Made by a program: the position numbers and the translations under genes
The notes under the pieces: generated by a model
The model's database searches: none
What the model saw: the letters and a program-made list of their open reading frames with translations, nothing else
Told to the model about the DNA's origin: nothing
Source: a virus
Lineage: Duplodnaviria; Caudoviricetes
DNA: 64,000 bases
IMG/VR virus record: IMGVR_UViG_3300026549_000034
Span: 1-64,000 of that record
Reading direction: 5' to 3' (one strand)
Part shown: in pieces, positions 22,003-63,176 of the stretch
Position numbering within the stretch: the stretch's first letter is position 1
Layout: each line of letters begins with the position of its first letter

Positions 22003-22473
22003 ATGAAGAACATTAATAGCTATATTTTAGAAAAACTAAACATAAACAAAATTGATCTATCATTAGAAAGGAAATATCCTAAATTTACATACAACAATAT
22101 TGCTAATAAAACATTGTTTTTACTTGGATATACTACTTCTGTTGGTGAACATGATGGTATTGGCGTAACTACAAGAGATATTGAATATGTTAAAGAATGG
22201 ATAAGCCAAAATAATATAACAGATGTAGTAGGTGTAATTAATGATAGTGTATTCAATAATGTATCATTTAGTAATCAAAGAAAGAACTATTATATATTTA
22301 ATGATGAATTATATAATAAAATAGATGATGAGTATTTACATTCAAATATTGATGTTTTAAATAAAAGATCATTTATTACTTTATCATGTACAAAAAATAT
22401 TATTTCTACAGATATTTTTAACAATAGTACAATATATGTTATAGACAAAAAATATTTTGACACAATTAAATGA
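22003..22473 (+). CDS. hypothetical protein with capsid-targeting-like N-terminus
   Basis: MKNINSYILEKLNI. Confidence 0.7.
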   Translation: MKNINSYILEKLNINKIDLSLERKYPKFTYNNIANKTLFLLGYTTSVGEHDGIGVTTRDIEYVKEWISQNNITDVVGVINDSVFNNVSFSNQRKNYYIFNDELYNKIDDEYLHSNIDVLNKRSFITLSCTKNIISTDIFNNSTIYVIDKKYFDTIK

Positions 22474-22979
22474 AGCTACTTATTTCATATATACAAGAAA
22501 AACTAAATAAAGGAAGTATTTCAAACTTTGACAAAGAAAAAAATATAAAGGACAAAGAAATACAATTATTTAAGAATTATTATTTTGGATTGTCAAATGA
22601 TGATGCAGATTTAATATTGAATAAATATGTATATGGATGGCCTCTTCCTCAAAATACATTAAATAAAACAACATGTACTGCATTTGAATTATTGTTTATG
22701 CTTGCTGCTATGTTAGTGGATGATGGCAATGACTACTTGCAAGTTTATAAATTAGGATTCACATCATACAAAAAGATTGGAGAAAATAACCCTTATGACT
22801 ATAGTTGGTTTGAAGAAGAAGTTGATGGTAAAGATATGCTTACTATATGTCAGGAATGGATAGCTGATAATGAAAAGGAATTTAGAAACATATATAATTT
22901 ATGCAAAAAATATGATAATGACCTAACTATAGAAAAAATTGAAAGTTTTTATGAGGAAGTATTTGATGCAGAAAATTAA
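22470..22979 (+). CDS. hypothetical protein with capsid-targeting-like N-terminus
   Basis: MKLLISYIQEKL. Confidence 0.7.
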   Translation: MKLLISYIQEKLNKGSISNFDKEKNIKDKEIQLFKNYYFGLSNDDADLILNKYVYGWPLPQNTLNKTTCTAFELLFMLAAMLVDDGNDYLQVYKLGFTSYKKIGENNPYDYSWFEEEVDGKDMLTICQEWIADNEKEFRNIYNLCKKYDNDLTIEKIESFYEEVFDAEN

Positions 22980-23007
22980 AAAAAAATTATGAAAAAATAC
23001 ATTTATT

Positions 23008-23037
23008 TTTAAAATAATTGATATTTTTAACTATAAT
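23008..23037 (+). promoter_or_regulatory. putative promoter of the leader/tRNA island
   Basis: TTTAAAA-N16-CTATAAT. Confidence 0.5.
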
Positions 23038-23085
23038 ATATTATTATTAATTATAAAATAAGTAAAAATTAAACTTCAGAAATAT

Positions 23086-23217
23086 ATGAATAACATTAGT
23101 CTACATAGTATTAGTTTGAATTCATCCCTCTTTAGAGGTATTGAATCATGTGGTAGTATGTTTGAATGTGGACGACCAAGTGAACATATGAAAATTTCTG
23201 GAGATATGGAAGGATAA
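23086..23217 (+). CDS. putative attenuator leader peptide (43 aa, Ser-rich)
   Basis: MNNISLHSISLNSSLFRGIESCGSMFECGRPSEHMKISGDMEG; its 3' end is complementary to the downstream terminator arm. Confidence 0.55.
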   Translation: MNNISLHSISLNSSLFRGIESCGSMFECGRPSEHMKISGDMEG

Positions 23218-23257
23218 AAGTAATATACATATTGAAGTATAAAACATATTAGAATAT

Positions 23258-23296
23258 AAATCTCCAGAACCTTGAAAAAGATTTTGGAGATTTTTT
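23258..23296 (+). terminator. intrinsic terminator (attenuator candidate)
   Basis: AAATCTCCAGAA / TTTTGGAGATTT stem with CTT-GAAA-AAG cap and U tract. Confidence 0.75.
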
Positions 23297-23341
23297 GATT
23301 TATAATAAAAAGGAAGAAAAAATTAAAAAAGTTTGAAAATA

Positions 23342-23371
23342 TTTAAATTTACTTGAAAAATAAACTATATT
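23342..23371 (+). promoter_or_regulatory. putative promoter directly upstream of the first tRNA
   Basis: TTTAAAT-N16-CTATATT. Confidence 0.55.
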
Positions 23372-23455
23372 TAATTATCAAAGTTAATTAAAAAACTGAG
23401 ATTAAATTATCAAAACAAAAAAATAAAGAAGAGTTCTTTGAATACTTTTAATAAT

Positions 23456-23531
23456 GCGGGGTTCGTCTAGAGGCCCAGGACTCGAGATTTTCATTCTCGC
23501 AACATGGATTCGAATTCCATACCCCGTACCA
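23456..23531 (+). tRNA. tRNA-Glu(TTC)
   Basis: Full cloverleaf, loop TTTTCAT, encoded CCA. Confidence 0.93.
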
Positions 23532-23642
23532 TTGTTAAATATTTGGCAGAGTTAGGCCTATTGCACTGCTCCCTACGAGTTAGGTAAAGTGGTATTTACA
23601 GTGGTAATTAATCAAGGGTTCAAATCCCTTAATATTTAACAA
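23532..23642 (+). ncRNA. tRNA-like RNA with 12 bp terminal stem and branched anticodon region
   Basis: Ser-type D arm, AAGGG-TTCAAAT-CCCTT T arm, no normal anticodon arm. Confidence 0.55.
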
Positions 23643-23836
23643 ACGATCTTTGACATATTGATACAATAATACATAAAAAAATATATAAATTACCTGTACT
23701 GGTCAACGATTCTAAGGTACAGAGGGGTACAGGTCATAAGTCATAAACTCTCAGAACGCTGTTGAAACATAACAGATGCGTCAAGTGCCAGCTACTGAGC
23801 AGTCGTAACGGGTTTATGAGATTTATTTTCAAATAT

Positions 23837-24062
23837 AAGTTTCCGAGGGCTGGAAGGAATTCCAATATTGAACCTCCAATGGGCATACTGAATTGACAGT
23901 TGAAAGACCTTGTAGTGGCAAACATGTGATTGAGGTCAGTGCGATACGTAAAGCAACGTAATGGAGACTGTGAAAGAGAAAAGCAGTGAGAATCTGCACT
24001 TTAGTAGAATCCCTTTAGTGGATTGAAGGAGTTAATTGCTCTATGACAGATGTAGGAAACTT
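23837..24062 (+). ncRNA. unknown structured RNA (about 225 nt)
   Basis: Closing stem AAGTTTCC/GGAAACTT, several internal hairpins, GC higher than flanks. Confidence 0.5.
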
Positions 24063-24157
24063 TTAAAATATTATACAGTCACTGGTTGTCGAGAAGACAA
24101 TTAGAATCAGATATCCCTCATAGATGTGTAGATGAACTGTTGAGGAGGGTAAAACAT

Positions 24158-24268
24158 AAGATGCTATGGTTGACCTGCATGACGAAAGGGCGGGTCCGAG
24201 GGTTCGAATCCCTCTCCTGAGGTATCTCGGGATGGCAGAGTGGTTGAATGCATGACCTAAGGTATCTT
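24158..24268 (+). ncRNA. circularly permuted tRNA mimic (YrlA-like topology)
   Basis: Order: variable arm, T arm, acceptor stem closed by GTAT loop, D arm; ends pair as extended anticodon-side stem. Confidence 0.75.
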
Positions 24269-24276
24269 TATTTTTT

Positions 24277-24365
24277 GGAGGTTTGGCAGAGTTGGTCGAT
24301 TGCACCGGTCTTGAAAATCGGCGGGCGTTCATAGCGTCCCGGGGGTTCGAATCCCTCAGCCTCCG
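24277..24365 (+). tRNA. tRNA-Ser(TGA)
   Basis: Class II cloverleaf, loop CTTGAAA, G73. Confidence 0.95.
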
Positions 24366-24370
24366 CATAT

Positions 24371-24448
24371 AAATTCATTGTTGTAGAATAGAGTTACTTC
24401 AATAATAGGGTTTTTATTTAATACTTTATTCGCTAGTTACATGAATTT
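24371..24448 (+). ncRNA. Y RNA-like module, minimal form
   Basis: AAATTCAT/ATGAATTT stem, TGTTGTA/GCTAGTTAC internal loop, GAATAGAGT/ACTTTATTC stem, TACTTC. Confidence 0.65.
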
Positions 24449-24455
24449 TTAATTT

Positions 24456-24540
24456 GGGCAGTTGGATGAGCGATTTAGTCGGCAGTCTGCAAAACTGTTA
24501 GTGGTGAGAACCCAGGCCGGTTTGACTCCGGCACTGCCCT
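24456..24540 (+). tRNA. tRNA-Cys(GCA) with long variable arm
   Basis: Loop CTGCAAA, U73, 17 nt variable region. Confidence 0.85.
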
Positions 24541-24561
24541 CAAAAAAATAAATAATAAATT

Positions 24562-25074
24562 ATGATATTACAATTAAAAGAATATTTAGCAGAAAAATTA
24601 ATAGATACACATATATTTGAAATGGCAAAATCTATTAGTGAATTTGAAGATCTTGTAGAAAATATGATTGATCCAATATTATGTCATATTATTTTAATTT
24701 TAAAAGCTAAAGAAGAAAATTCAACAGAATTTGTTATACATTGGAAAAAAGAAGTCATAGGATTTTTTAAAAAATTTACAAATATTAAATTAAAAACTAA
24801 AAATTCATATGAATCAAAACTAAAACATATAAAATCTATATTATTTGATGAGTTAAATTTAGATAACATGGATAATTTAGATAATATTAAGAAAATTATA
24901 TATATCAAAATGTATCAAGAAGGATATGATTTAAATGATAAAAAAATATGGGATGATTTTAAATCTATTATAGAAGATATTCAAATCAATCATTTAGATA
25001 TAATAATTGATTTAATGGCTTCAAATGATCAATATAAAATCGTTAATTATATAGAAAATTTATATAAAACATAA
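24562..25074 (+). CDS. hypothetical protein (DUF29-like HW..E motif) with capsid-targeting-like N-terminus
   Basis: LKEYLAEKL; HII...HWKKE. Confidence 0.6.
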   Translation: MILQLKEYLAEKLIDTHIFEMAKSISEFEDLVENMIDPILCHIILILKAKEENSTEFVIHWKKEVIGFFKKFTNIKLKTKNSYESKLKHIKSILFDELNLDNMDNLDNIKKIIYIKMYQEGYDLNDKKIWDDFKSIIEDIQINHLDIIIDLMASNDQYKIVNYIENLYKT

Positions 25075-25156
25075 TGAGTGTAGTTTCAACAAGGACTTTT
25101 CTACAAGAACGTTCATTACAAAGTCGTTGTGACAAATAGGGAGAGACCTGTACATT

Positions 25157-25236
25157 GGGTCACGTAGCTGAGAAGGTTTAGCGCTGGATTGAAGCTCCAG
25201 GTCATTTGTACGGCAGTTCGATTCTGCCCGGACCCA
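25157..25236 (+). tRNA. tRNA-Phe(GAA), atypical
   Basis: Loop TTGAAGC; bulged A in acceptor stem; 11 nt variable region. Confidence 0.75.
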
Positions 25237-25529
25237 CTATTGCATTTTTTGAATACTGTTTATGCAAGTCAAATAAGAGAACAGTATATAAGATATACAA
25301 AATATATCTAAAACGCTCAAACATCATAGAGGAGGTCGTAATTCTTTAGGTGGGCTATTGATACTATGGTGAAACTCTGTAGAAATTTAAAATTTAAATC
25401 TGCGCATCTTTTATTAAATTTCTACATATCTTAAGAGTTATCTTGTTACTTGAGGCGCCAAGGAAGGAACCCCGCTTACGAGGAATTAGGGGAAATATTA
25501 AGGACAAGGATTAGGAAAAGATTTTTTAA

Positions 25530-25607
25530 CTGGGTGTATGCCGGTAATTGGTTTAACCGTCCACATTTGGAATGTGGTTTATGCAGGTTCGAATCCTGTC
25601 ACCCAGA
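25530..25607 (+). tRNA. tRNA-Pro(TGG)
   Basis: Loop TTTGGAA, canonical T arm; extended acceptor-D linker. Confidence 0.85.
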
Positions 25608-25609
25608 CT

Positions 25610-25749
25610 AAAGGCAAACGTATTTAAGTGTACATAAAATACGTGTTTGAAAAGAAATGTCAGAATTCGCGGTTCTGAATATAGGTTCGAATCCTTCTTA
25701 ACGGTAGCCAAACGTTTAGTTTATTGGTTAAAACATTTCAAACGCCTTT
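25610..25749 (+). ncRNA. second circularly permuted tRNA mimic
   Basis: T arm AGG-TTCGAAT-CCT precedes closed stem AACG..CGTT and D arm GTTT-ATTGGTTA-AAAC; outer stems GTTTGAAA/TTTCAAAC and AAAGGC/GCCTTT. Confidence 0.65.
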
Positions 25750-25758
25750 TTATTCAAT

Positions 25759-25829
25759 GGGGATGTAGATCAATAGTAAATCATAACACTTTCAATGTTA
25801 AGTCTCCGGAGCGTAACCGGACTTCCCTA
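25759..25829 (+). tRNA. tRNA-Glu(TTC)-like with non-canonical D and T loops
   Basis: Loop CTTTCAA; T loop AGCGTAA; D loop lacks GG. Confidence 0.6.
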
Positions 25830-25831
25830 CT

Positions 25832-26017
25832 AAAAACTATTCATCCTGGTGGCTGGCTGACAGCAAATAGGAGGCATTAGAAGAGCGGGTTCATTCCGGA
25901 AAATTTTATACCACGCTTTCTTGCCGGAAATTTGGAATCAAGTGCGCATACAAGAACAAGTTTCCCATAGGCTTTAACCTGAACAGAATTGGGTGAGATG
26001 GTAATTGAATAGTTTTT
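25832..26017 (+). ncRNA. unknown structured RNA
   Basis: 12 bp perfect closing stem AAAAACTATTCA/TGAATAGTTTTT. Confidence 0.45.
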
Positions 26018-26023
26018 TATTAT

Positions 26024-26097
26024 TGGGCTGTAGCTCAGTTGGTTAGAGCGCTACACTGATAATGTAGAGGTCCTGAGTTCAAATCTCAGCAGCCCAA
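26024..26097 (+). tRNA. tRNA-Ile(GAT)
   Basis: Canonical cloverleaf, loop CTGATAA. Confidence 0.95.
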
Positions 26098-26101
26098 CTT
26101 A

Positions 26102-26298
26102 GAAGTCTAGCTTAAAAGATCTGTGGGAATATTTTAATAATTAAGTCAAGAAGGACGTCGCTTGAAACTGATTTTTAAGATTAGTACCAAGAGAAGATGA
26201 AAGTATGGAACTTAGCTAACTCCAGAAATTAATTCTTAATAATCAGACATAGAGTGCCAGCACGAGGCTGGTGGATTCCGTGAAAGTCGGAGACTTCG
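26102..26298 (+). ncRNA. tRNA-shelled RNA with large insert in place of the anticodon loop
   Basis: GAAGTC/GACTTC acceptor-like stem, TCCG-TGAAAGT-CGGA T-like arm, GCCAGC/GCTGGT arm, TCTGTG/CATAGA stem. Confidence 0.45.
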
Positions 26299-26303
26299 CC
26301 CTA

Positions 26304-26383
26304 TACCGATGTATACCCTCGCTCTCATAAGGCGCTGAAAGGTTAATTGGGTTACATAACAGTTCGATTCTGTTCGTCGGTAC
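26304..26383 (+). ncRNA. rearranged tRNA-like RNA with CAT anticodon hairpin
   Basis: Acceptor and T arms normal; CGCT-CTCATAA-GGCG hairpin with no preceding D arm. Confidence 0.55.
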
Positions 26384-26387
26384 ATAT

Positions 26388-26493
26388 GGAGGTTCACTTG
26401 CAATAATTATTAAGTCTTAAGAAGCTGTTGGGAAACTAATAATTATGAAGTAAAACAATAGGGATTCTGATAGTGATAAATGTACCTCCACCA
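26388..26493 (+). ncRNA. RNA with acceptor-like stem ending in ACCA but lacking T and D arms
   Basis: GGAGGT/ACCTCC-ACCA; internal ATAATTATTA/TAATAATTAT helix. Confidence 0.4.
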
Positions 26494-26499
26494 ATATAT

Positions 26500-26642
26500 A
26501 AATTCCTTGTTGTAAATAAGAGTTACTTCTTTCACCAATATTTCGAAAGGGTAGTTCAGTGGTCAGAACACCAGCATTGAAAACTGGAGGTCGTTGGTTC
26601 GAATCCAACTCTATAAACTTTTATTGAATGTTACAGGAATTT
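26500..26642 (+). ncRNA. Y RNA-like module enclosing a tRNA body (D, anticodon, T arms)
   Basis: Same outer module as 24371-24448; inside GTTC-AGTGGTCA-GAAC, CCAG..CTGG, GTTGG-TTCGAAT-CCAAC. Confidence 0.75.
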
Positions 26643-26652
26643 TATAATTTTT

Positions 26653-26725
26653 GCAGTATTGGTGTTAGTGATTAGCATAGGACACTTCCAATGTTCAGGG
26701 GACAGTTTGAATCTGTTATACTGCT
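26653..26725 (+). tRNA. tRNA-Gly(TCC)
   Basis: Loop CTTCCAA, U73. Confidence 0.88.
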
Positions 26726-26820
26726 CAGGGTCTAATTTAGTAGTAATCAAGACGCAAGGTGTATTCAAAGACTACACAGGAGATAACTACTCAAACCGGT
26801 AAGTAGAGGCCGGTATTTTT

Positions 26821-26895
26821 ACCCTATTCGACTAATGGTTTAGGTCACTACTATCTTAAAGTAGAAATGATGAAGTTCGAATCTTCCATAGGGTG
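26821..26895 (+). tRNA. tRNA-Lys(CTT), atypical
   Basis: Loop ATCTTAA; imperfect T stem. Confidence 0.7.
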
Positions 26896-26898
26896 CTT

Positions 26899-27030
26899 AG
26901 CGCGGTGGTGAAATTCAATAAAACTTTTTTCGCTGTTGCTTCTTTATGAATGCTGTAGATAAGAGTTACTTCAGGTATACACACTTTATTTTGGTTAAAG
27001 ATTATGTTGGTTCGAGTCCAACCCGCGCTA
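26899..27030 (+). ncRNA. tRNA-Gln(TTG)-like RNA with a permuted Y RNA-like module (about 58 nt) in its D loop
   Basis: AGCGCGG/CCGCGCT acceptor, CTTTA-TTTTGGT-TAAAG anticodon arm, canonical T arm; insert 26916-26973. Confidence 0.75.
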
Positions 27031-27042
27031 CTATTTTTTAAT

Positions 27043-27111
27043 AAGTACTTAGCTCAATGTTAGAGCCTTGGATTTTACCAAGAGATTCAGGTTTAATTCC
27101 TGAGGTACTTT
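27043..27111 (+). tRNA. tRNA-like gene with 6 nt anticodon loop (identity undetermined)
   Basis: CTTGG-ATTTTA-CCAAG; paralog at 29898. Confidence 0.6.
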
Positions 27112-27117
27112 TTTAAT

Positions 27118-27193
27118 GCTTCTGTAGCTCAATTGGATTAAGAGCATCTGAATACGAATCAGGAGGTTGCGGGTTCGAGTCCTGTCAGAAGTA
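27118..27193 (+). tRNA. tRNA-Arg(ACG)
   Basis: Loop ATACGAA, A20. Confidence 0.92.
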
Positions 27194-27314
27194 CTAAATC
27201 CTATGGCTATATAGTTGAATTACGTAATAAATATTATATAGTTAAGTAAGCATAGGCGAGGGTCAAGAGGCGAGACGCGTGACTAAGTTTTCGGATCTAA
27301 GGAAAACCGAATTT

Positions 27315-27386
27315 GCAGTGTAGGTGTTAATGGTTGCATAGGATCCTGCCACGATTCAGGAGTCAGTTCAAATCTGATACACTGCT
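27315..27386 (+). tRNA. tRNA-Gly(GCC)
   Basis: Loop CTGCCAC, U73. Confidence 0.9.
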
Positions 27387-27573
27387 CAAAAATTTTCAAA
27401 TCGAAGGAAACATCTAAGAGAAGTCGCAGTTCAGGACCGAATTAGAAGAAGTTACTGTAGGCAACGTTAATAAGAAGCGCAGATGGTGCAATTTATAAAG
27501 TCCTCTGGGAACATTGATGTAACCCCATTATTAAACAGTTGTACAGGATAGTGGAATGTAGATTTGAATATAT

Positions 27574-27671
27574 AAACTTTATAAGAGAACAAGGTGAGAA
27601 ACCAAGATGACCTCAAGTTGTAAAACGGTTGAAGGCGTTAGTTTAGTTATTATAAAACACTTATAAAGTTT
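27574..27671 (+). ncRNA. degenerate permuted tRNA mimic
   Basis: 12 bp outer stem AAACTTTATAAG/CTTATAAAGTTT; GG-TGAGAA-CC before a D-like arm GTTT...AAAC. Confidence 0.4.
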
Positions 27672-27677
27672 TAACAT

Positions 27678-27751
27678 GGTGGTTTTAGCTCAAATGGTAG
27701 AGCGTCTGATTGTGACTCAGAAGGTAATGGGATCGTTACCCATAAACCACC
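27678..27751 (+). tRNA. tRNA-His(GTG)
   Basis: G-1:C73, loop TTGTGAC; T loop ATCGTTA is atypical. Confidence 0.9.
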
Positions 27752-27776
27752 CAAATAAATTTAATAAATATAAATT

Positions 27777-28805
27777 ATGCAATCTTTAGAAAGTTATATT
27801 GAACGGTTTAAGAATAATTATTACGAGCGTCATTATCAAATAGATTTAAATAATTTAGATTTATTTGATATGTTGATTTTAGATTCATGTATTAATTATT
27901 ATAAAGTAAACTATGATGAACATTATGAATTTGGACAATTATTTGAAAGTCATTCAGTATTTAATAAGTGCAGAGACATAACTAAATTCTTGACATTTGT
28001 GTTAACTAATTTTGATGTAAAGGAATCATCAATACTTTTTATGTGTAATAATATAGAAGAATTAAAAAATGATTACGTTATATCAATTAATATTAATTAT
28101 GAATCAAATATTGAAGATAATGCACAATATGACCAAACAATAGAAAAAAGCATAATAGATAATAAACTTGATTATATTGTTATAAATATTAATACAAACT
28201 TAGATAAAGACGAAATATATGATAAGATTGAACATGAATTAATTCATTCATTTGAAGATTATAATAGAATAATAAATGGAGCAGAATCTTTAAATGATAA
28301 AGCAATACAAGATAAATATTACAAATTATCATTAAGTGAAACCGATTCACAAGAATTACAAGATGTTAAAAATCTACTATACTTATTAGATAAATCTGAA
28401 CAAAATGCGTATATTGCTCAATTTGATGGAATTTTGGGTGATAATAAATATGTAACAATTCAACAAGCATATGAAAAGATATATAATTCCAAATTATATA
28501 AAGACATTAAATCATTTTCATATTTAGTTCTCAATAAAGATAAAGATACACAAGATTTATTATGTAATTTATACAGAAAAATATATGAGACAAATATAAT
28601 AAACAACAAAATTCTTAAAAAGATATATAAAGAATGGAATAGATTTTTTGAACATTTTAGAAGAAATATATATCAATGTATTTGTGACCATATTAAAGAT
28701 AATAGAAATATTTTAGATCGTGGAAGAACAATAAAAGATAATAGCAAATTAAAAGAAAAAATTGAAAACGAATATTTAAATAAATTTATTTTTATTGAAA
28801 AGTAA
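27777..28805 (+). CDS. putative zinc metallopeptidase-like protein (HExxH)
   Basis: HELIH...EQNAY; N-terminus MQSLESYIE. Confidence 0.55.
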   Translation: MQSLESYIERFKNNYYERHYQIDLNNLDLFDMLILDSCINYYKVNYDEHYEFGQLFESHSVFNKCRDITKFLTFVLTNFDVKESSILFMCNNIEELKNDYVISININYESNIEDNAQYDQTIEKSIIDNKLDYIVININTNLDKDEIYDKIEHELIHSFEDYNRIINGAESLNDKAIQDKYYKLSLSETDSQELQDVKNLLYLLDKSEQNAYIAQFDGILGDNKYVTIQQAYEKIYNSKLYKDIKSFSYLVLNKDKDTQDLLCNLYRKIYETNIINNKILKKIYKEWNRFFEHFRRNIYQCICDHIKDNRNILDRGRTIKDNSKLKEKIENEYLNKFIFIEK

Positions 28806-28818
28806 TTTTATGATTTTT

Positions 28819-28904
28819 GGAGAGTAAAGCTAGACAAGGTCAGCGGCTGCCTGCTAAGCAGTTCGTGCGGGTAACTGCATGTGGGGCGGGACCACTGCTC
28901 TCCG
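28819..28904 (+). tRNA. tRNA-Ser(GCT) with atypical T loop
   Basis: Loop CTGCTAA, long variable arm, G73; T loop GGCGGGA. Confidence 0.85.
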
Positions 28905-28905
28905 C

Positions 28906-29094
28906 AGAAACAATGTAGCGCGCATTAACGTACTGTTGATAGCCTTTGATTTTTGCTATCACCGAAACGTACTGATTCGGGAAAGTTTTCTTGGTCTTAT
29001 AATGAAATTGTTGAAAATTTCATATTTTCAATAATGTAATTTTGAAAATTTCATATTTTCAATAATGCAAAAGCTCGTGATGAGAAAAATCAAG
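28906..29094 (+). ncRNA. duplicated structured RNA, copy 1 (with tandem hairpin insert)
   Basis: Homologous to 29968-30090 with compensatory base changes. Confidence 0.7.
29011..29067 (+). repeat. tandem duplication TTGAAAATTTCATATTTTCAATAATG x2
   Basis: Copies at 29011 and 29042, each a hairpin. Confidence 0.85.
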
Positions 29095-29158
29095 TTTTAT
29101 TTTTATTAAAAGATATAAATTATAAATTATAAATCATAAAAACATTAAAGATTATATT

Positions 29159-29404
29159 ATGAAAAATATAAATGAATATCTGGTGAAAGAATCTGCTGAT
29201 GAAGTAGAACTTGTTGTTCTTTCGCCAGAAGAACTTAAAAAGGTTTTAGAATTTATTAAAGGTAATGAGGATAGAGGTATTTGTTTAAGAGATACACGAA
29301 ATACTGATGATGAATGGTATCAAATAGATGCTTGCTATTATGACGATAGAAATGATAAAGGTCCTCGTAATTGGCCTTGGAAAAAAATAGTAAGAAAAAA
29401 CTAA
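29159..29404 (+). CDS. hypothetical protein with capsid-targeting-like N-terminus
   Basis: MKNINEYLVKE. Confidence 0.65.
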   Translation: MKNINEYLVKESADEVELVVLSPEELKKVLEFIKGNEDRGICLRDTRNTDDEWYQIDACYYDDRNDKGPRNWPWKKIVRKN

Positions 29405-29432
29405 AATAAAATATAAAAATATTATATAAATT

Positions 29433-29729
29433 ATGAAACAAATTCAAAATTTTTTATTTGAGGCATCTATAGTTAATCAGGTAGATAATATAATTATTAG
29501 TGGTTGTGGATCAATGCATAATGAAAATGTAATAAATGTTATTAAGTCATTGAAGAATAATTTTAAAAATGCTAATTTATATGTATATGACGGTGATAAA
29601 GATGAAGTTATTCCATTAAAGGATATTAATGATTTTAAAGCCAATGGTCCTCATAATAATAATTTATCTGGTATTGCAAAATTTTACAAAGATCATTTAG
29701 GAGAAATAACAATATTTATACAAAACTAA
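29433..29729 (+). CDS. hypothetical protein with capsid-targeting-like N-terminus
   Basis: MKQIQNFLFEA. Confidence 0.65.
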   Translation: MKQIQNFLFEASIVNQVDNIIISGCGSMHNENVINVIKSLKNNFKNANLYVYDGDKDEVIPLKDINDFKANGPHNNNLSGIAKFYKDHLGEITIFIQN

Positions 29730-29897
29730 TATATCCAAGTAGTCATGAATGCTTGGTGACGTAAAGCCTAAATCCCCGTCATTTAGGGAGAATCGTAAGT
29801 CTCATATCACAAGTACAGGGCCTATGATATCTGTGGTTTAAGAAGGTTTACCTGAGGATAAGAAACCCAAAAACTTCAAAAGAGCCTTGTGTTTTTT

Positions 29898-29966
29898 ACC
29901 TCTTTAGCTCAATGTTAGAGCCTTGGATTTTACCGAGAGATATAGGTTCGATTCCTATGAGAGGTA
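29898..29966 (+). tRNA. tRNA-like gene with 6 nt anticodon loop (identity undetermined)
   Basis: CTTGG-ATTTTA-CCGAG; D arm identical to the 27043 copy. Confidence 0.6.
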
Positions 29967-29967
29967 C

Positions 29968-30090
29968 AGAAACAATGTAGCGCGCATTAACGTACTGTCG
30001 ATAACCTCTATTTTGTTATCGCCGAAACGTACAGATTCGGGAAAGTTTTATTGGTTTTATAATGCAAAAGCTCAAATGAGAAAAACCAAT
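29968..30090 (+). ncRNA. duplicated structured RNA, copy 2
   Basis: Homologous to 28906-29094. Confidence 0.7.
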
Positions 30091-30196
30091 TTTAATAATT
30101 TGGATGCCTGCTGATATTGTAGAACATGTGAAAATTGTGTCTACCTTGTCCACCAGCTCGGTATTAAATAGCAGAATGTGTCCAAATTATTTTAAT

Positions 30197-30283
30197 GCCC
30201 AGGTGTTGGAATGGTAGACATCCCTGCCTTAGAAGCAGGTGCGAAATAATAGTAGCGTGGGAGTTCGAGTCTCCCTCTGGGTA
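30197..30283 (+). tRNA. tRNA-Leu(TAG)
   Basis: Loop CTTAGAA, class II, A73. Confidence 0.92.
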
Positions 30284-30291
30284 CAAAATAT

Positions 30292-30364
30292 TGGGATATG
30301 GTGTAATGGTTGAGCACACAGGTCTCTGAAGCCTTTAGTATCAGTTCGAATCTGGTTATCCCAA
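30292..30364 (+). tRNA. tRNA-Gln(CTG)
   Basis: U1-A72, loop CTCTGAA. Confidence 0.88.
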
Positions 30365-30500
30365 CAAATACTGCCCGTAGTTTTAGATATGAGTTTGACC
30401 CGTATAAGAAACCATATCAAAAACATTTTCAATGACTATAGGAAGAGATTATTGCAGTTGCTCTTCAAAAAACGCACATCCTATATAGAAAATGTAAAAT

Positions 30501-30588
30501 GCGGCTGTGGAGGAATAGGCAGACTCGTTTGCCTAAGGAGCAAATTCGAAATAACAGTAGAGTGTGGGTTCGAGTCCCACCAGCCGTA
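30501..30588 (+). tRNA. tRNA-Leu(AAG)
   Basis: TTTGC-CTAAGGA-GCAAA; Leu-type D arm and variable arm. Confidence 0.88.
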
Positions 30589-30733
30589 CAATTTGTGTAA
30601 TAATAGTAACACTGGATGTGCACGTTGTTATCTATTCAGAGGATAAGAAGTATGAATATATAAATAAGTAATAATAGCGCTATAAAATTATTCATATTGT
30701 TCATATTTAACTGTAAATTTCACTTATCCAAAA

Positions 30734-31272: not shown

Positions 31273-31317
31273 CAAATCAAAATCCTACATTAATATTATT
31301 GTATCAATATTTTTAAT

Positions 31318-31396
31318 GCCACAATGGCGGAATTAGGTAGACGCGCTAGATTCAAAATCTAGTCTTCGGGTGTAGGTTCGAGTCCTACTTGTGGTA
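31318..31396 (+). tRNA. tRNA-Leu(CAA)
   Basis: Loop TTCAAAA, Leu D arm. Confidence 0.92.
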
Positions 31397-41584: not shown

Positions 41585-41640
41585 ATATTATTAAATTTTT
41601 GAAATATTTATACTATATTTATTAAAAATAAATTAAAAAT

Positions 41641-54721: not shown

Positions 54722-55316
54722 GAATAAACAATTTATATATACAGAAAAGGACGCTGAAAATTTTTATTTTGTTAGTGATACTCATTTTTCTCATGAAAAC
54801 ATAATTAAATATTGTAAACGTCCTTTTGATTCAATAGAACAGCATGATAATGAATTAATTAAGCGATGGAATGAGAAAGTACCAGAAGATGGAATTGTAT
54901 TTCATCTGGGTGATGTTGCATTTGCTAATCGAGATAGAGTAGATAATATTCTTAAACAACTTAATGGAAAGATCTATTTAGTAATTGGAAATCATGATTG
55001 GAGAAGAATTGTGACCGATCATAGCTGGCGATTTGAATTGATGACACAACAAATTAATATGAAAATTGGAAAGCGTCATATAATTCTTAATCATTATCCT
55101 ATGCTTGCTTTTAGTGGAGCCTGGCGTGGTGAAGATGCAACTTATCAATTATTTGGTCATGTTCATACTTCTCCATATACTGATGAAGGTCTTGATACAC
55201 CAAGAATGAAAATGCTATTTGCTTCTCAATATGATGTCGGTGTAGATAATAATAATTTTACACCAGTATCTTGGAATGAAATAGATACAATTATTAAAAA
55301 TAGAATAAGTGAATAA
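54708..55316 (+). CDS. calcineurin-like metallophosphoesterase
   Basis: SDTHFSH, HLGD, GNHD, HYP, GHVH, DVGVD. Confidence 0.9.
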   Translation: MQMNKNKQFIYTEKDAENFYFVSDTHFSHENIIKYCKRPFDSIEQHDNELIKRWNEKVPEDGIVFHLGDVAFANRDRVDNILKQLNGKIYLVIGNHDWRRIVTDHSWRFELMTQQINMKIGKRHIILNHYPMLAFSGAWRGEDATYQLFGHVHTSPYTDEGLDTPRMKMLFASQYDVGVDNNNFTPVSWNEIDTIIKNRISE

Positions 55317-55758
55317 TAAATATACTAAAACAAATAATATGGATTATGTAGATTTGGGTTTGTCTGTTAAATGGGCAGATTGTAATGTAGGAGCAAATTC
55401 ACCTGAAGAGTTTGGAAGTTATTTTAATCGTGATGAATCAAAGAAAATCAAAGATATTACAATTCCAACGCTTGATCAGTGGCAAGAACTTCAGAGTAAT
55501 TGTACGTGTAAATTAAATAAAAATAAAAAAGGATGGACTATTACTGGTAAGAACGGCAATAAAATATATTTACCTATAGCTGGAGAAGGAAAGAATAATC
55601 CAAATGTAAAAGTGATGGGTGCATTTTTCTGGTCAAGCGATGATACTGAAGTAAATGGATTGCCTTTCACTTGGTATGCAGCATTTGATATGAAGGGTCG
55701 TAAAGATACACATTTGTTAGATCCTGAATATTGGATTTCTGTAAGAGGAGTACAATAA
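55309..55758 (+). CDS. VDLGL-domain protein (DUF1566/FISUMP-like, common in Prevotella)
   Basis: YVDLGLSVKWA.CNVGA...PT..W.EL...VRGV. Confidence 0.75.
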   Translation: MNNKYTKTNNMDYVDLGLSVKWADCNVGANSPEEFGSYFNRDESKKIKDITIPTLDQWQELQSNCTCKLNKNKKGWTITGKNGNKIYLPIAGEGKNNPNVKVMGAFFWSSDDTEVNGLPFTWYAAFDMKGRKDTHLLDPEYWISVRGVQ

Positions 55759-57182: not shown

Positions 57183-57998
57183 ATGAATGGAATTATAGGA
57201 GCAATTGTTGGATCAAGTATAGGATTTTCTTATGAAATTAAGAAAACAAAAAATTATAACTTTAATATGATTTATGATAAGTCAAATGCAACAGATGATT
57301 CTGTAGCTATTATTGCCACTGCTGATTGGCTTATGACAACTAATCATACAAAAGATGAATATATTGATAAGCTACATTATTGGTGTAACAAATACAATTA
57401 TGGGATGTATAATTACGGAAATGCTACCAAATTTAAAGAATGGGTAAGAAATAAAGAAAGGACACCATATAATTCATTTGGTAATGGATCTGCTATGAGA
57501 GTAATTCCTGTAGGTTGGTATGCAAAAAGTATTGAAGAAGCTGAAAGACTTGCAAAAATAACTGCAGAAGTAACTCATAATCATCCTGAAGGCATTAAAG
57601 GTGCTCAAGCTGTTGCTGTTACTATTTGGATGATTCGCAATAATGCTTCTAAAAAAATTATTAAAAGGTATATTGAAGAATCTTATAATTATAATCTTAA
57701 TATATCATATGAAAAATTAAAAACACATCATATATTTGTATGTACTTGTCCTAATTCTGTTCCAGCATCATTAATTTGTTGGTTAAATAGTAATAGTTAT
57801 GAAGATTGTATAAGAAAAGCAGTAAGTCTTGGTGGTGATGCTGATACTGAAGCTGCAATTGCAGGAGCATTTGCTGCGGCTGATAGTAATACACCCGTTG
57901 ATGATAATTTAGTAAATGATCTAACTAGATTTTTTTCAATTGATTTTCTTGAAGTATTAAATAAGTTTCATAATAATATTGAATTAAAGAATGGATAA
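57183..57998 (+). CDS. ADP-ribosylglycohydrolase (DraG/ARH family)
   Basis: TDD, SFGNGSAMR, THNHPEG, GGDADT. Confidence 0.92.
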   Translation: MNGIIGAIVGSSIGFSYEIKKTKNYNFNMIYDKSNATDDSVAIIATADWLMTTNHTKDEYIDKLHYWCNKYNYGMYNYGNATKFKEWVRNKERTPYNSFGNGSAMRVIPVGWYAKSIEEAERLAKITAEVTHNHPEGIKGAQAVAVTIWMIRNNASKKIIKRYIEESYNYNLNISYEKLKTHHIFVCTCPNSVPASLICWLNSNSYEDCIRKAVSLGGDADTEAAIAGAFAAADSNTPVDDNLVNDLTRFFSIDFLEVLNKFHNNIELKNG

Positions 57999-58297: not shown

Positions 58298-59752
58298 ATG
58301 AGTAAACTTAATTCCACACGTAAGTCTTCTACATTGAAGACAAATCAAATAACTGTTGGTGAAATTGCTGGTCAGATAACAGATACTGCAGCAGCTCAGT
58401 CAAATATCGCTCTTCTTCGTAGAGCAGTTCTTGCAAATCTTCTTTGGGAGAATATTGCATACATGGATGGTGAGTCTGTCACAAATGAGATAAAGAGATT
58501 GATTTCTCTTTGTGATCCTCAAGATGTTGCAAATCTAACTATTGAAGCTCGTACTATGCAAAAGCTTCGTCATACTCCTCTTTTCCTTGCAGTAGAAATG
58601 TGTAAGCATGAAGCAACACGTCCTTATGTAAAGGATATACTTCCAAAGATTATCACACGTGCAGATATGCTTACTGACTTCATGGCTCTTTACTGGGCTG
58701 ACGGTAAGTGTCCTATTTGTAATGCAGCAAAGAAGGGTCTTGCTGAAGCATTCCATAACTTCAATGAGTACAAGTTTGCTAAGTATGACCGTAATGCAGA
58801 AATCAAGCTTCGCGACGTAATGTTCATGGTTCGTCCAAAGCCAGAAACTCCTCTTGAGGTTGAACTTTACAAGAAGATTGCTGATCGTACTCTTGAAACT
58901 CCTGAGACATGGGAGGTGCTTCTTTCACTTGCTCACACTAATGAAGAAAAGGCAGCCGTTTGGACAAAGCTTATTACTGAAGGTAAGCTTGGTGGTAAGG
59001 CTATGCTTATGAACATCCGTAATATGCAAAATGCAGGTGTTCCTCGTCCAATCATTGTACAAGGTCTTCAAGAACTTAAGGGAGCTATGCTTCTTCCACT
59101 TGATTTCTTGAAAGCTATGCGTGAAAGTAATGGCTTTGATAGAGAGATTGAAGATGCAATGCTTAAGACATATGAGAATATGCCTAAGCTTCCAGGTAAG
59201 ACTCTATTTATTGTGGATGTATCTGGATCTATGGGATCACTTACAAGCAGTGGTTCAACATTTACTAGACTTGACCAAGCATGTTCGATGGCAATGTTGG
59301 CAGCTAACCAATGTACTGACTTTGAACTTGTATGTACTGCCGGTTCTGATGGAGAGCTTCGTGAAGAGCAAATGAGAATTCTGTATCCTCCTAAGGGATT
59401 TAATCTCTTCAAAGAAATTGAAGCCTCCCGTAAAACTGTAGGAGGTGGTGGTATCTTCACATACCAGTGTCTTGAAAAGCTTCGTAAGGAGCTTGGTGAT
59501 AAGATACATGATTATGACAGAATCATTGTATTCAGTGATTCGCAGGATATAGATGTATCAAGTTGGCGTTCACCTAACCATGATAAGAAGCCACGTCCAT
59601 TTGGTAAGTACAATTATATCTGTGATATATCTGCTCATACTCGTGGTATTGCTTACAATGGTGTTTGGACAGCTGAAATTTCGGGTTGGTCAGAACACTT
59701 CCTTACATATATTGCAGCATATGAAGGAATTGAAAATACATTTGATGAATAA
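58298..59752 (+). CDS. Ro60/TROVE-domain RNA-binding protein (Rsr-like) with vWA domain
   Basis: LR..P, ITRAD, F.EY..AKY, LRDV.F..RPKP, TWE..LS, DVSGSM MIDAS, FSD.Q, SGWSE. Confidence 0.93.
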   Translation: MSKLNSTRKSSTLKTNQITVGEIAGQITDTAAAQSNIALLRRAVLANLLWENIAYMDGESVTNEIKRLISLCDPQDVANLTIEARTMQKLRHTPLFLAVEMCKHEATRPYVKDILPKIITRADMLTDFMALYWADGKCPICNAAKKGLAEAFHNFNEYKFAKYDRNAEIKLRDVMFMVRPKPETPLEVELYKKIADRTLETPETWEVLLSLAHTNEEKAAVWTKLITEGKLGGKAMLMNIRNMQNAGVPRPIIVQGLQELKGAMLLPLDFLKAMRESNGFDREIEDAMLKTYENMPKLPGKTLFIVDVSGSMGSLTSSGSTFTRLDQACSMAMLAANQCTDFELVCTAGSDGELREEQMRILYPPKGFNLFKEIEASRKTVGGGGIFTYQCLEKLRKELGDKIHDYDRIIVFSDSQDIDVSSWRSPNHDKKPRPFGKYNYICDISAHTRGIAYNGVWTAEISGWSEHFLTYIAAYEGIENTFDE

Positions 59753-59831: not shown

Positions 59832-60344
59832 ATGAAAAGTATAAAAAACTATATTAATGAAGCATTACAAAATGAAGATTGGTTAAGCAATGCAAAAAAT
59901 AATGAGGAACCATTTGTTAAAGCTGCGCTTGAAAATGAAGGATGGAAAATAAAAGTTGGATCACAAGATGAAGATTTTAAAGGTATTGACTTAAAGGTTG
60001 AAAAGGATGATACTGATGATCAATTTGGTGGAAAATTCAATATAGATGTTAAGGGATGTTCAGCAAAAAATAAAAATTCAAAACGTTTCTTATTTACATG
60101 TAAAAGTTCATCTGGAAAAGAATATCCATACAAAGATAAACACTTTATAGCATTTATTAATTATACAGATAAGACTATTACAATAGTTGCAGATAATGAT
60201 ATTAAAACATTAGCAAGTAAATATAAAGAATATGATAGTCAATCTGGCGATAATTCTAAGTTTATATTATTACCAAAAATGGAGGTTCAAAAACTTGGTA
60301 GAACAATTGATCCATCTGATGAGATTAAATCATTATTAAAATAA
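59832..60344 (+). CDS. PD-(D/E)XK nuclease-like protein with capsid-targeting-like N-terminus
   Basis: E..V, D.KGID, IDVK; MKSIKNYINEA. Confidence 0.65.
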   Translation: MKSIKNYINEALQNEDWLSNAKNNEEPFVKAALENEGWKIKVGSQDEDFKGIDLKVEKDDTDDQFGGKFNIDVKGCSAKNKNSKRFLFTCKSSSGKEYPYKDKHFIAFINYTDKTITIVADNDIKTLASKYKEYDSQSGDNSKFILLPKMEVQKLGRTIDPSDEIKSLLK

Positions 60345-60405: not shown

Positions 60406-60447
60406 TTATTATAAAAAATAACACAACTTTAATGTATATTGGGCTCA

Positions 60448-61290
60448 TTAATCAATTCTATCTTCATGATACCATTTTGGCCATTTTGATGGACAATTTT
60501 CTAACATAAAATCATAATTACACTTTTGATTAATTTGCCAATTTGTTATATCAATTTTTAAGTTTTTACAATCTTTAAAACATTTTGTTAAACTTATACA
60601 GTTACTTACATTCCAATTTTCTATACCTTTAATTGTTTTTAATGATGTACAACCTTCAAATAATGAAGTTAGATCACCACAATTATCTAGTTTCCAATTG
60701 CTTGTATCACCTACATTTTCTAATGATGTACAATTCTTAAATATTCTTCTAAATATCTCACATTTACTTAAATTCCAATTTGACAAATCAATAGTTTTTA
60801 GTTTAGGACATCTAACAAATAATATGCGAATTTCCGAAAGATTTGAAGTGTCCCAAGTATCTAATCCATTAATTTGTTTTAGAAACATGTTTTGTGAAAA
60901 TATACCATGTAATCCCCATACATTTGACAAATCCCAATTAGTAACATCTATATATTTTAATTGTGTATCTGAAAAAATATTTTCTAATTCACAATTATTA
61001 CAAAACTTCCAATTAGATGCATTAATATATTCTATTTTTCTATCACTATCAAATAAAAATGATAGTTCATCACCACTATTAATTTTTGAAAAATCTATAT
61101 AAGATACATCAACAGGAGATATGGGTGTACCGCTTCCATATATATCTTTTTGTTTTTCTATATATTGTTCTAATTCTGACAGATTTTTAGGTACAAACCA
61201 TGTATGATTAGTATTTACAGATTTAACATTTAATTTTTCATTAATATAAACATTTAATTTTTCATTAATGTGTTGTGTTAAAGATAACAT
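60448..61290 (-). CDS. BspA/DUF285-like leucine-rich repeat protein
   Basis: NWD.SN....F..C..L repeats; doubled INEKLNV tag. Confidence 0.85.
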   Translation of the reverse strand: MLSLTQHINEKLNVYINEKLNVKSVNTNHTWFVPKNLSELEQYIEKQKDIYGSGTPISPVDVSYIDFSKINSGDELSFLFDSDRKIEYINASNWKFCNNCELENIFSDTQLKYIDVTNWDLSNVWGLHGIFSQNMFLKQINGLDTWDTSNLSEIRILFVRCPKLKTIDLSNWNLSKCEIFRRIFKNCTSLENVGDTSNWKLDNCGDLTSLFEGCTSLKTIKGIENWNVSNCISLTKCFKDCKNLKIDITNWQINQKCNYDFMLENCPSKWPKWYHEDRID

Positions 61291-61911
61291 TTATTCTTCT
61301 GATTGTATATTTGTGTTTTCAATTCGTGGATTTACTTCATTACGAACAGCTACAATATCATCAAGCATATCTTGTAAAAGTTGTAAATGTTCTTCTTCAT
61401 CAGCAAGAATTTCTTTACATTTCTTTTCTGTTGTATAATCTTTGAATGATTGTGCAACTTCAATTAAATCTCTATATGTTTCTATTGCACCCATTTCATT
61501 TTCAACATTTTGTAATAATGAATCAAGTACATCTATAACTTGTTTATCATTATTTAAAATATTTTGGTGACCATATTTAGGTGACCATTTAGGTGATATA
61601 TAAGTATGATCTGCTGTCAACCAAGATGCTGGTGATATTGTAATGTCTTCAATTGTTGCTTCAAGTTCACTAAGACGCTGCATTATCCAATATGCATGAT
61701 CTTCAAGTTCATCTTTAGCAGTTTCTTCATATAATTTAACTATTTCTGGTCTACAATTTCCAACAAGCCAATCTCGAACTACTATATATCCATACCATGC
61801 ATTAAATTCCTCTTTAAGTGCATTTTTTAATTTTTCTACGATTACTCTATTTGATTCTGAATCTATCCATGATTCCGTATAAGCTTCATTAATAGTACTG
61901 AATTTTTTCAT
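61291..61911 (-). CDS. ferritin-like (Dps/bacterioferritin-type) protein
   Basis: EE..AWY.Y, DELEDH, E..AI..Y, D..T...IL.DEEEH. Confidence 0.85.
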   Translation of the reverse strand: MKKFSTINEAYTESWIDSESNRVIVEKLKNALKEEFNAWYGYIVVRDWLVGNCRPEIVKLYEETAKDELEDHAYWIMQRLSELEATIEDITISPASWLTADHTYISPKWSPKYGHQNILNNDKQVIDVLDSLLQNVENEMGAIETYRDLIEVAQSFKDYTTEKKCKEILADEEEHLQLLQDMLDDIVAVRNEVNPRIENTNIQSEE

Positions 61912-61929
61912 ATTATAATTTTTTGTTTT

Positions 61930-62118
61930 TTATTTATTAGCAAAATACGCTTTTAAAGCATTTTCAGCCTTTTCTCTTGTTTTATATTTTGCTCTCCAAT
62001 ATCCTCGTTTAGGTGTGTTAGTTCCTTTACCGGCGTGTCCTTTAATGCGCCAGTAATCACCAACCTTAACGATAACATCTTCAAGTTGTTCTTGTATATA
62101 TGTTTTAAGATCTTTCAT
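61930..62118 (-). CDS. small basic protein with capsid-targeting-like N-terminus
   Basis: MKDLKTYIQE. Confidence 0.65.
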   Translation of the reverse strand: MKDLKTYIQEQLEDVIVKVGDYWRIKGHAGKGTNTPKRGYWRAKYKTREKAENALKAYFANK

Positions 62119-62120
62119 TT

Positions 62121-62432
62121 TTAATCAAGAAAATCAGGTAATTTTTGACTTATAAAATCATAATAATTTGAGCAATCATTAGGATATTTTTCTTCCAAAT
62201 ATGCCCAAATAGTATTTAATAATTCTTCAGTTTTATCAAGATGTGCATTCTTTGAAGGATAATCAATGGTTTTTAATATAATATTCATATCATAATCATA
62301 TTTTTCCATTTCTTTCTTTATTTCTTCAATATCTAAATCTTTATTATCAGCTTTAACATTATCCATAATTGTTTTAGCTAATTTATCATCTAATTTCGCT
62401 CCTTCTAATATAAATTCTTTTAAACTTTTCAT
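62121..62432 (-). CDS. hypothetical protein with capsid-targeting-like N-terminus
   Basis: MKSLKEFILE. Confidence 0.65.
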   Translation of the reverse strand: MKSLKEFILEGAKLDDKLAKTIMDNVKADNKDLDIEEIKKEMEKYDYDMNIILKTIDYPSKNAHLDKTEELLNTIWAYLEEKYPNDCSNYYDFISQKLPDFLD

Positions 62433-62486
62433 ATTATAATATTTTATAAATTTATTTTTATGTTTCTACTAATATATAAAATCTTT

Positions 62487-63176
62487 TTAACTTAAAATAG
62501 GACGAACCGGCAAGCCAGCACAACGATTATATGTGTATAAATAAATATCATGTCTATCAGCACGCAGGAGGTAAGCATATCTTGGATTATTTATCATAAG
62601 AGATGAAGACCAAACATTAATGTTAGAACCACCATAGTCATCATAATCACCATCACGATCACCAGCAGCTGGAATAAATAAAGTATTGTTATTTGTTTTA
62701 GATGTAAATAGTCTACCATTTAGACCAGATATATCTTGATAATTTGTTATCCATTTATTATTTGTTTCATCCATTAATTCCACAAATTGTTCTCCGTCAG
62801 GTAGTTTATATTTTCCCGTCATATTAGCATTAGCCATGTCATCTTGCATATCTAATTCTAATATATTGTCTGGTTTGCCTGCACCACCCCAGTAATCTGT
62901 TTTATTAGTAGGACAATACTTAGTTAGTTTATCCCAAACACCTTTAGCATATTTATAGTTATCCCAATCACATTTTTTATTATCTGCTGGTTCAATATCA
63001 CCCCACATAAAGTAATTACCATACCAAGATTCGGCGGTAGATCCATGTTTAGCGCCAACATTATATTTGCACCATAAAGTACCTGATGGCAAACCTAAGT
63101 CTACGGTGTTATCTTTACTTATATCAATATTTTTTATATTAAGTTTTTCTGTTATATATGAATGTATTGATTTCAT
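62487..63176 (-). CDS. VDLGL-domain protein with capsid-targeting-like N-terminus
   Basis: MKSIHSYITEKL; VDLGLPSGTLW..YNVGA...GLPVRP. Confidence 0.75.
   Translation of the reverse strand: MKSIHSYITEKLNIKNIDISKDNTVDLGLPSGTLWCKYNVGAKHGSTAESWYGNYFMWGDIEPADNKKCDWDNYKYAKGVWDKLTKYCPTNKTDYWGGAGKPDNILELDMQDDMANANMTGKYKLPDGEQFVELMDETNNKWITNYQDISGLNGRLFTSKTNNNTLFIPAAGDRDGDYDDYGGSNINVWSSSLMINNPRYAYLLRADRHDIYLYTYNRCAGLPVRPILS

Follow-up and report, generated by a model that had tools for sequence, protein, structure and literature searches.

The stretch considered here (the window) comprises the first 64 kb (64,000 nucleotides) of a 193,181-bp record of an uncultured tailed phage of the Caudoviricetes (IMG/VR record IMGVR_UViG_3300026549_000034; 26.7% GC; CheckV completeness 68%). 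Many of its open reading frames (ORFs), whose products are otherwise unrelated, begin with a shared N-terminal tag that resembles the capsid-targeting sequence (CTS) of phage T4. In its canonical form this tag reads M-K-x-[LI]-x-x-[YFC]-[IL]-x-E, with the Glu at residue 10. An earlier note on this DNA had listed 19 starts of this kind. Translation of all 19 coordinates recovers the canonical tag at 13 of them (22003, 22470, 29433, 34436, 41031, 41225, 41584, 44677, 45369, 59832, 62118, 62432 and 63176). The other six consist of one doubled variant (61290), four shifted or degenerate versions (24562, 29159, 27777 and 61911) and a dead one at 44120, where a TAA replaces the Glu10 codon and a 90-residue untagged ORF restarts at an internal Met (44045). 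The region 43773-44120 may thus be a natural case of tag loss. Over the entire record, designated G000 below, the strict tag is carried by 33 of the 269 called ORFs, so that the tag shared by many unrelated ORFs, as the earlier note had it, is real. When variants are included, tag carriers make up about 15% of the genes, roughly 42 in 193 kb, of which 14 to 19 lie within the window.

The earlier note had allowed that such a motif might be no more frequent than in shuffled AT-rich N-termini. Shuffling of residues 2-20 yields an expectation of 0.03 strict matches, with a maximum of 1 across 2000 shuffles, against the 33 observed. Among ATG-started open decamers in all six frames, 34 out of 4828 match the pattern and all 34 are gene starts. 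A register test that does without the pattern finds [LI]-x-E with its Glu at residue 10 in 46 ORFs, compared with 1-9 ORFs at each of the other registers from 6 to 22. Relative entropy, computed over all ORFs starting with MK and with the later residues left unfiltered, peaks at positions 4, 7, 8 and 10 in G000 as well as in two related contigs (G001 and G002), and more weakly in a third (G005). The KLNI said to follow the tag is real, in the form KLN[IV], but it defines only a sub-flavour, since in the 33 strict tags K11 occurs 17 times, L12 21 times and N13 17 times. When IMG/VR was scanned for tags extended by KLN[IV] (the long form), only one unrelated contig was returned, suggesting that this form is specific to the lineage.

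A motif of this kind could in principle be a functionless by-product of some constraint on DNA or translation, being either a recombination cassette that shuffles protein bodies or an A/T-rich initiation region adapted to a host that does not rely on Shine-Dalgarno pairing. Consistent with this, a Shine-Dalgarno-like motif lies upstream of only 4% of the genes, and the tagged genes of G000 are clustered (19 adjacent tagged pairs versus 6.4 expected). In addition, one tag end is tandemly duplicated: the tag at 61290, which has a His at position 7, carries a perfect 21-nucleotide repeat that doubles INEKLNV. However, the synonymous codons within the tag are as varied as genome usage predicts (sharing of 0.57-0.65 versus an expected 0.61), indicating that the peptide itself is under selection, not a recently copied piece of DNA; recent DNA copying of the tag is ruled out by the same analysis. 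Moreover, it is specific residues (Tyr/Phe7, Ile8, Glu10) that are kept, not base composition, and the shuffled N-termini fall far short of the observed count. Finally, in the DUF285 family of tagged proteins, compared across three genomes, M1, K2, E10, K11 and L12 never vary and Y7 and I8 hardly do, against a mean column identity of 43% in the bodies. The by-product explanation, very improbable in our judgement, has largely been refuted already by the shuffling, codon and DUF285 evidence.

The bodies that follow the tag have little in common. When the tags are removed and the remainders compared by BLASTP at 1e-3, 41 tagged proteins give 29 unrelated groups: a DUF285 family of 12, one pair and 27 singletons. 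Most tagged bodies of the window have no homologue even in the related contigs G001-G005, and their turnover must therefore be fast. Where homologues could be paired, the tag status was tagged/tagged in 32 cases, tagged/untagged in one, untagged/tagged in five and untagged/untagged in 177. The alignment of a tagged nucleotidyltransferase-like protein of G005 with its untagged homologue in G000 begins at residue 11 of the former and residue 2 of the latter, from which it follows that the tag is an exact 10-residue cassette ending at the Glu. An AlphaFold2 (AF2) model of the DUF285 protein at 44147-44677, built on the family alignment, gives a confident repeat solenoid (predicted local distance difference test score, pLDDT, above 90), with residues 1-20 at 53-56; the tag appears as a low-confidence helix at residues 4-12, followed by a disordered linker. 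Compared with other DUF285 BspA-like leucine-rich-repeat proteins, the phage copies add the tag and a flexible linker before the repeat body. We know of no such tag on cellular DUF285 proteins.

Few rules are known by which a phage selects the proteins carried in its head, and the CTS of T4 is one of them. It serves a handful of proteins, one of which, IPI, is a proven anti-restriction factor. The T4 ipII and ipIII products start with MKTYQEFIAE. The first 10 residues of IPIII are enough for head loading, and amber-suppression mapping assigns residues 4 and 7 mainly to targeting and residues 8 and 10 to processing, the cleavage by gp21 occurring after L/I-x-E (PMC9026906). The conserved positions of the tag described here (4, 7, 8 and 10) are exactly those mapped as functional in the IPIII sequence. 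Both elements are N-terminal and 10 residues long, with a Met-Lys start, a hydrophobic residue at 4, an aromatic one at 7, Ile at 8 and Glu at 10. Both sit on unrelated, fast-evolving small proteins. Some of the tagged genes lie by a tRNA cluster, as do ipII and ipIII in T4, and gp21-type and gp23-type genes are present in the lineage of this phage. The likeness to the T4 sequence thus stands, in view of the same length, the same functional positions and a gp21-type protease in the lineage. As a control of specificity, the same loose DNA pattern was applied to T4: the only matches at gene starts are ipII, ipIII and 61.1, the other two being internal to genes 12 and 43. Against these three gene-start matches stand the approximately 42 carriers in 193 kb of the present phage, which, unlike those of T4, include enzymes and the 12-member DUF285 family and frequently display an extended form, E-K-L-N-[IV]-K-x-I. 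The CTS has been proposed as a possible means for T4-like phages to bring diverse proteins into the capsid (PMC9026906).

Five IMG/VR contigs, G001 to G005, share a baseplate-wedge protein with G000 at 39-59% identity. They contain 10, 22, 2, 5 and 30 matches to the tag pattern, respectively, and none to a reversed control pattern. Two of them are near-complete, namely G003 (223 kb, with terminal repeats) and G005 (376 kb, 98% complete). In both, a gene for a Peptidase_S77 (gp21-type) protease lies next to that for a Gp23-type capsid protein, and the protease ORFs themselves have an N-terminus of the form ...[LI]-I-Y-E, with the Glu at residue 10. The G005 protease ORF (212552-214165, plus strand) encodes 537 amino acids, the protease domain being followed by an acidic tail of tandem WVVEEFAPEVQN repeats with many [LI]-x-E sites; judged by this layout, it looks like a protease-scaffold fusion. 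Arrays of tagged genes are found in G005 at 184-191 kb and 229-234 kb, flanking the protease and capsid genes at distances of about 15-20 kb. G003 has tagged DUF285 genes directly beside the protease gene, in a nine-residue form, MSLxx[FY]IxERLKITS. It encodes about 21 tagged proteins, 18 of which belong to one DUF285 family.

One tagged gene leads to the capsid by another path. The product of 41028-41225 consists of the tag, a copy of the N-arm of the capsid protein (LFATPMNTIGMGNPSAPS..GSGDIP) and a basic tail. The protein matches the G005 capsid protein over residues 63-120 of the latter (E = 2e-9) and has tagged orthologues in G001 and G005. Because it copies the capsid N-arm, at least one tagged gene of the window is independently linked to the capsid. 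The T4 counterpart is gp61.1, a protein of 54 amino acids annotated as hypothetical and encoded beside the primase gene 61 (T4 KJ477684.1, 18952-19116, minus strand). It is likewise made of a CTS-like tag, the N-terminal segment of its own major capsid protein and a basic tail. T4 gp61.1 aligns with residues 57-93 of gp23 (E = 4e-9), and its I-K-E10 falls on the L-T-E of gp23, which we take to be the site at which gp23 is cleaved during maturation. The window sequence MKSLKEYIEEELFA aligns with MKTFKEFIKEDMVA of gp61.1, the mutual resemblance being confined to the tag, and the rest of each protein resembles the capsid protein of its own lineage. Unlike gp61.1, the window gene is found in a run of three tagged genes and not beside a primase gene. 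From these alignments, both proteins look like overlooked head components.

These data suggest that the tag is a T4-type capsid-targeting address and cleavage tag that has been greatly expanded in this lineage, a reading to which we give a probability of about 0.6. According to this model, the tag, as a short helix, would bind the scaffolding core of the assembling prohead, and any protein bearing it would be enclosed by virtue of that binding. The gp21-type (S77) prohead protease would then remove the tag after Glu10, at the [LI]-x-E site. Within the lineage, the tag would have spread to unrelated small proteins of fast turnover, to the DUF285 family, to some enzymes and to the gp61.1-like mimic. 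Core binding, cleavage, packaging, ejection and any role of the tagged proteins in the host are what we infer from sequence.

It must be noted that several observations weigh against this capsid-targeting model. A tagged share of about 15% of the genes is far above the handful of T4. Glu10 is frequently followed by Lys in this phage, versus Ala in T4 ipII and ipIII. No Peptidase_S77 or Gp23 match was found in the 68% complete G000 record, nor in the records of the other incomplete relatives; at the position in G000 that corresponds by synteny to the head module of G005, the whole module is missing. All 23 homologues of the product of 27777-28805 start with MK-x-[IL]-x-E-Y-I and are devoid of Glu10. 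Many tagged genes are placed among replication-type and tRNA genes. Lastly, an NDK, a HAD hydrolase and an AAA ATPase are also tagged, and their packaging would have no obvious use.

A different reading is an address other than the capsid. The tag could be a degron or unfolding handle for a phage-encoded ClpX-like unfoldase, or else a helix that docks onto some other complex or compartment made by the phage. Through such an address, which we regard as unlikely, many accessory proteins would be brought together or removed at a set time. G000 does encode a ClpX-like AAA+ unfoldase (96112-97341, plus strand), with matches to AAA_2 and ClpB_D2-small and a weak one to the ClpX zinc finger. Orthologues exist in G004 and G005, and G005 also encodes ClpP. 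Neither ClpX nor ClpP was found in the complete G003, where the tag is almost restricted to a single DUF285 family (18/21), in keeping with this alternative; NDK and HAD hydrolase are, as said, odd as capsid cargo. Yet G003, devoid of both, still has its tagged genes, and these lie beside the head protease gene. The correlation with ClpX is drawn from five related genomes, three of them incomplete. Moreover, the top conserved feature is an [LI]-x-E in fixed register, i.e. the gp21 cleavage site, and a near-identical peptide serves capsid loading in T4. To our knowledge, [LI]-x-E is not a recognition motif of ClpX, and we know of no ClpX in T4.

Another possibility is that the tagged proteins do enter the prohead but serve there to assemble it, to scaffold it or to condense the DNA, and not as injected effectors, those without Glu10 being targeted and never cleaved. 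Roles in assembly belong to IPIII and the core proteins of T4, and an Asp at position 10 of the T4 sequence permits targeting without processing (PMC9026906). The tagged set includes the gp61.1-like mimic of the capsid arm and small basic proteins, and the family of 27777-28805 retains positions 1-8 of the tag and not Glu10. This family may be targeted without cleavage; alternatively, its N-terminal helix may be part of the fold. On the other hand, 27 unrelated singleton bodies with rapid turnover have the look of accessory cargo and not of conserved structural parts, and NDK, HAD hydrolase, ATPase and ferritin-like bodies are not scaffold-like. A purely structural role for the tagged proteins thus seems improbable.

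As to the identity of the presumptive cargo, the tagged bodies of the window match no family in Pfam, PHROGs, NCBIfam or PDB sequences, except for DUF285 and ferritin. The two leucine-rich-repeat (DUF285) proteins recognised earlier are borne out by Pfam PF03382, with 156.2 bits for 44147-44677 and 89 bits for 60448-61290, far above the gathering cut-off of 25. The same holds for the ferritin-like protein at 61291-61911 (PF00210, 55.8 bits; cut-off 24.5), the G005 orthologue of which bears a full tag, MKSINELIIE. Other functional labels given in the earlier note stand only in part. The HExxH motif behind the protease-like label of 27777-28805 is conserved at the matching place in all 23 homologues (P0001-P0023, phage proteins of about 345 amino acids), but Pfam, PHROG, NCBIfam and PDB gave no family match, and language-model leads to SprT-like proteins reached only 0.83. 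The PD-(D/E)XK nuclease, assigned in this analysis to 59832-60344, is unconfirmed: there is no Pfam, NCBIfam or PDB sequence match, the match to a PHROG of unknown function is below threshold (E = 0.0019), and a single-sequence AF2 model is unusable (pLDDT 43), which leaves a weak language-model lead to DpnI with a score of 0.89, below the 0.9 level. The protein at 55309-55758, described as an untagged paralog of the VDLGL protein at 62487-63176, shares its motif order, but the homology is not significant by BLASTP (E = 0.13).

In G000 the tag also directly precedes complete NDK, HAD-hydrolase and AAA-ATPase domains. These enzymes fit poorly with a purely anti-defence cargo, and the role of immediate anti-defence effectors attributed to the tagged proteins is speculation by analogy alone. 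A wider proposal, which we put forward tentatively, is that the tag serves as a general plug-in for delivery, each head carrying at least 40 different proteins, a pre-made starter proteome that would enter the cell with the DNA. Its cargo would include repeat-protein binders, nucleotide- and RNA-handling enzymes, and ferritin-like and metallopeptidase-like proteins, and new cargo would be recruited by acquisition of the 10-residue cassette alone. Published accounts of phiKZ, 201phi2-1 and SPN3US describe tens of head-internal proteins that a prohead protease cuts after Glu and that are delivered with the DNA (PMC5694885, PMC7411985, PMC10052503). It is to the propeptide-bearing head and ejection proteins of these giant phages that the tagged set can be likened. 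These phages, however, have a different cleavage context, and their propeptides are longer and non-uniform, not one short shared tag.

T4 already provides a precedent both for such a tag and for its attachment to varied cargo. The novelty lies in how many and how diverse its carriers are in this AT-rich jumbo phage, an uncultured and distant relative of T4, and in the extended EKLN[IV] form; none of the papers searched describes such a tag expansion. If the capsid-targeting model is true, protein co-injection can be a major and evolvable part of the infection strategy of a phage, and for dozens of genes without a family one could predict where the product resides (inside the head) and when it acts (within the first seconds of infection). 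Head cargo of uncultured T4-like phages could also be sought with a sequence rule based on the conserved positions. The tag is similar enough to that of T4 for a direct test in the existing T4 expression-packaging system.

The tagged genes and their neighbours are collected in the table below. A run of tRNA genes occupies 23456-31397 on the plus strand (16 by Rfam and 16 by ARAGORN, about 20 distinct loci), and tagged ORFs are interleaved with it. In two tRNA-like genes, at 27043-27111 and 29898-29967, ARAGORN reads a two-base 'tt' anticodon loop. Elsewhere, G000 encodes a UvsX-like recombinase and the baseplate-wedge protein, which count with the gp32-like protein as T4-like genes, and a head-closure protein. 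No match to 15 kb of the window was obtained among GenBank phages by megablast.

Table. Tagged ORFs, their variants and other genes referred to in the text (positions are those of the window unless a contig is named; aa, amino acids)
Feature	Coordinates	Strand	Remarks
Tagged ORF, MKNINSYILEKLNI	22003-22473	+	156 aa; body without known family
Tagged ORF, MKLLISYIQEKLNK	22470-22979	+	169 aa; start overlaps stop of preceding tagged gene (ATGA)
Shifted tag variant, MILQLKEYLAEKL	24562-25074	+	170 aa; Glu at 11, no Lys2; between tRNA genes
Degenerate tag, MQSLESYIER	27777-28805	+	342 aa; Glu at 9; HExxH at residue 153
Degenerate tag, MKNINEYLVKE	29159-29404	+	81 aa; Glu at 11
Tagged ORF, MKQIQNFLFE	29433-29729	+	98 aa
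gp32-like protein	32616-33698		T4-type replication gene
Tagged ORF, MKNIKEYINE	34436-34987	+	183 aa; start abuts the stop codon of the preceding gene; not the longer ORF from 34406
Tagged ORF, MKSLNRFIRE	39985-41031	-	348 aa; last gene of three-gene tagged run with start/stop overlaps
Tagged capsid N-arm copy	41028-41225	-	65 aa; T4 gp61.1 counterpart; inside three-gene tagged run
Tagged ORF, MKKIIQYISE	41222-41584	-	120 aa; first of three-gene run; G005 homologue tagged too
Dead tag, MKNLKDTII	43773-44120	-	TAA at codon 10, then KLNIKNI
Tagged DUF285 repeat protein	44147-44677	-	176 aa; Pfam and AF2 model
Tagged ORF, MKNLKTCLYEKLNI	44917-45369	-	150 aa; Cys7 and Leu8
NAD-dependent DNA ligase	45443-47332	+	T4-type replication gene; same block as Ro60-like gene
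Untagged protein with VDLGL...LPIAG motifs	55309-55758	+	same motif order as 62487-63176; comparison body without tag
ADP-ribosylglycohydrolase	57183-57998	+	same block as Ro60-like gene
Ro60/TROVE protein	58298-59752		
Tagged ORF, MKSIKNYINE	59832-60344	+	170 aa; nuclease-like reading unconfirmed
DUF285 protein	60448-61290	-	280 aa; doubled tag end
Ferritin-like protein, shortened tag MKKFSTINE	61291-61911	-	206 aa; I-N-E at residues 7-9
Tagged basic protein, MKDLKTYIQE	61930-62118	-	62 aa
Tagged ORF, MKSLKEFILE	62121-62432	-	103 aa
Tagged ORF, MKSIHSYITEKLNIKNI	62487-63176	-	229 aa; tag followed by VDLGLPSGTLW...IPAAG motif domain
Tagged HAD hydrolase	G000 69962-70606		Pfam domain from residue 22
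Tagged NDK	G000 71412-71846		Pfam domain from residue 19
Tagged AAA ATPase	G000 148533-149819		Pfam domain from residue ~70
ClpX-like protein	G005 259195-260367		
ClpP	G005 274307-274795		

As for the timing of expression, the candidate late-promoter motif TATAAATA lies at most 45 nucleotides upstream of 6 of the 42 tagged genes, compared with 8 of the 227 untagged ones (p = 0.012), with similar p-values for the control octamers (other AT-rich octamers, two of which are one-base shifts of TATAAATA); at the operon level p = 0.085. Another motif, in which TTATTTTTAA precedes TATAG, stands upstream of tagged and untagged genes alike and does not discriminate between them. A promoter-like T[TA]ATTTTTAA, with TATAG or TATAA about 10 nucleotides later, is seen 30-55 nucleotides upstream of many start codons of G000, again irrespective of the tag; examples are at 41631 and 59783 in the window and at 102101, 130198, 134241 and 149870 in G000.

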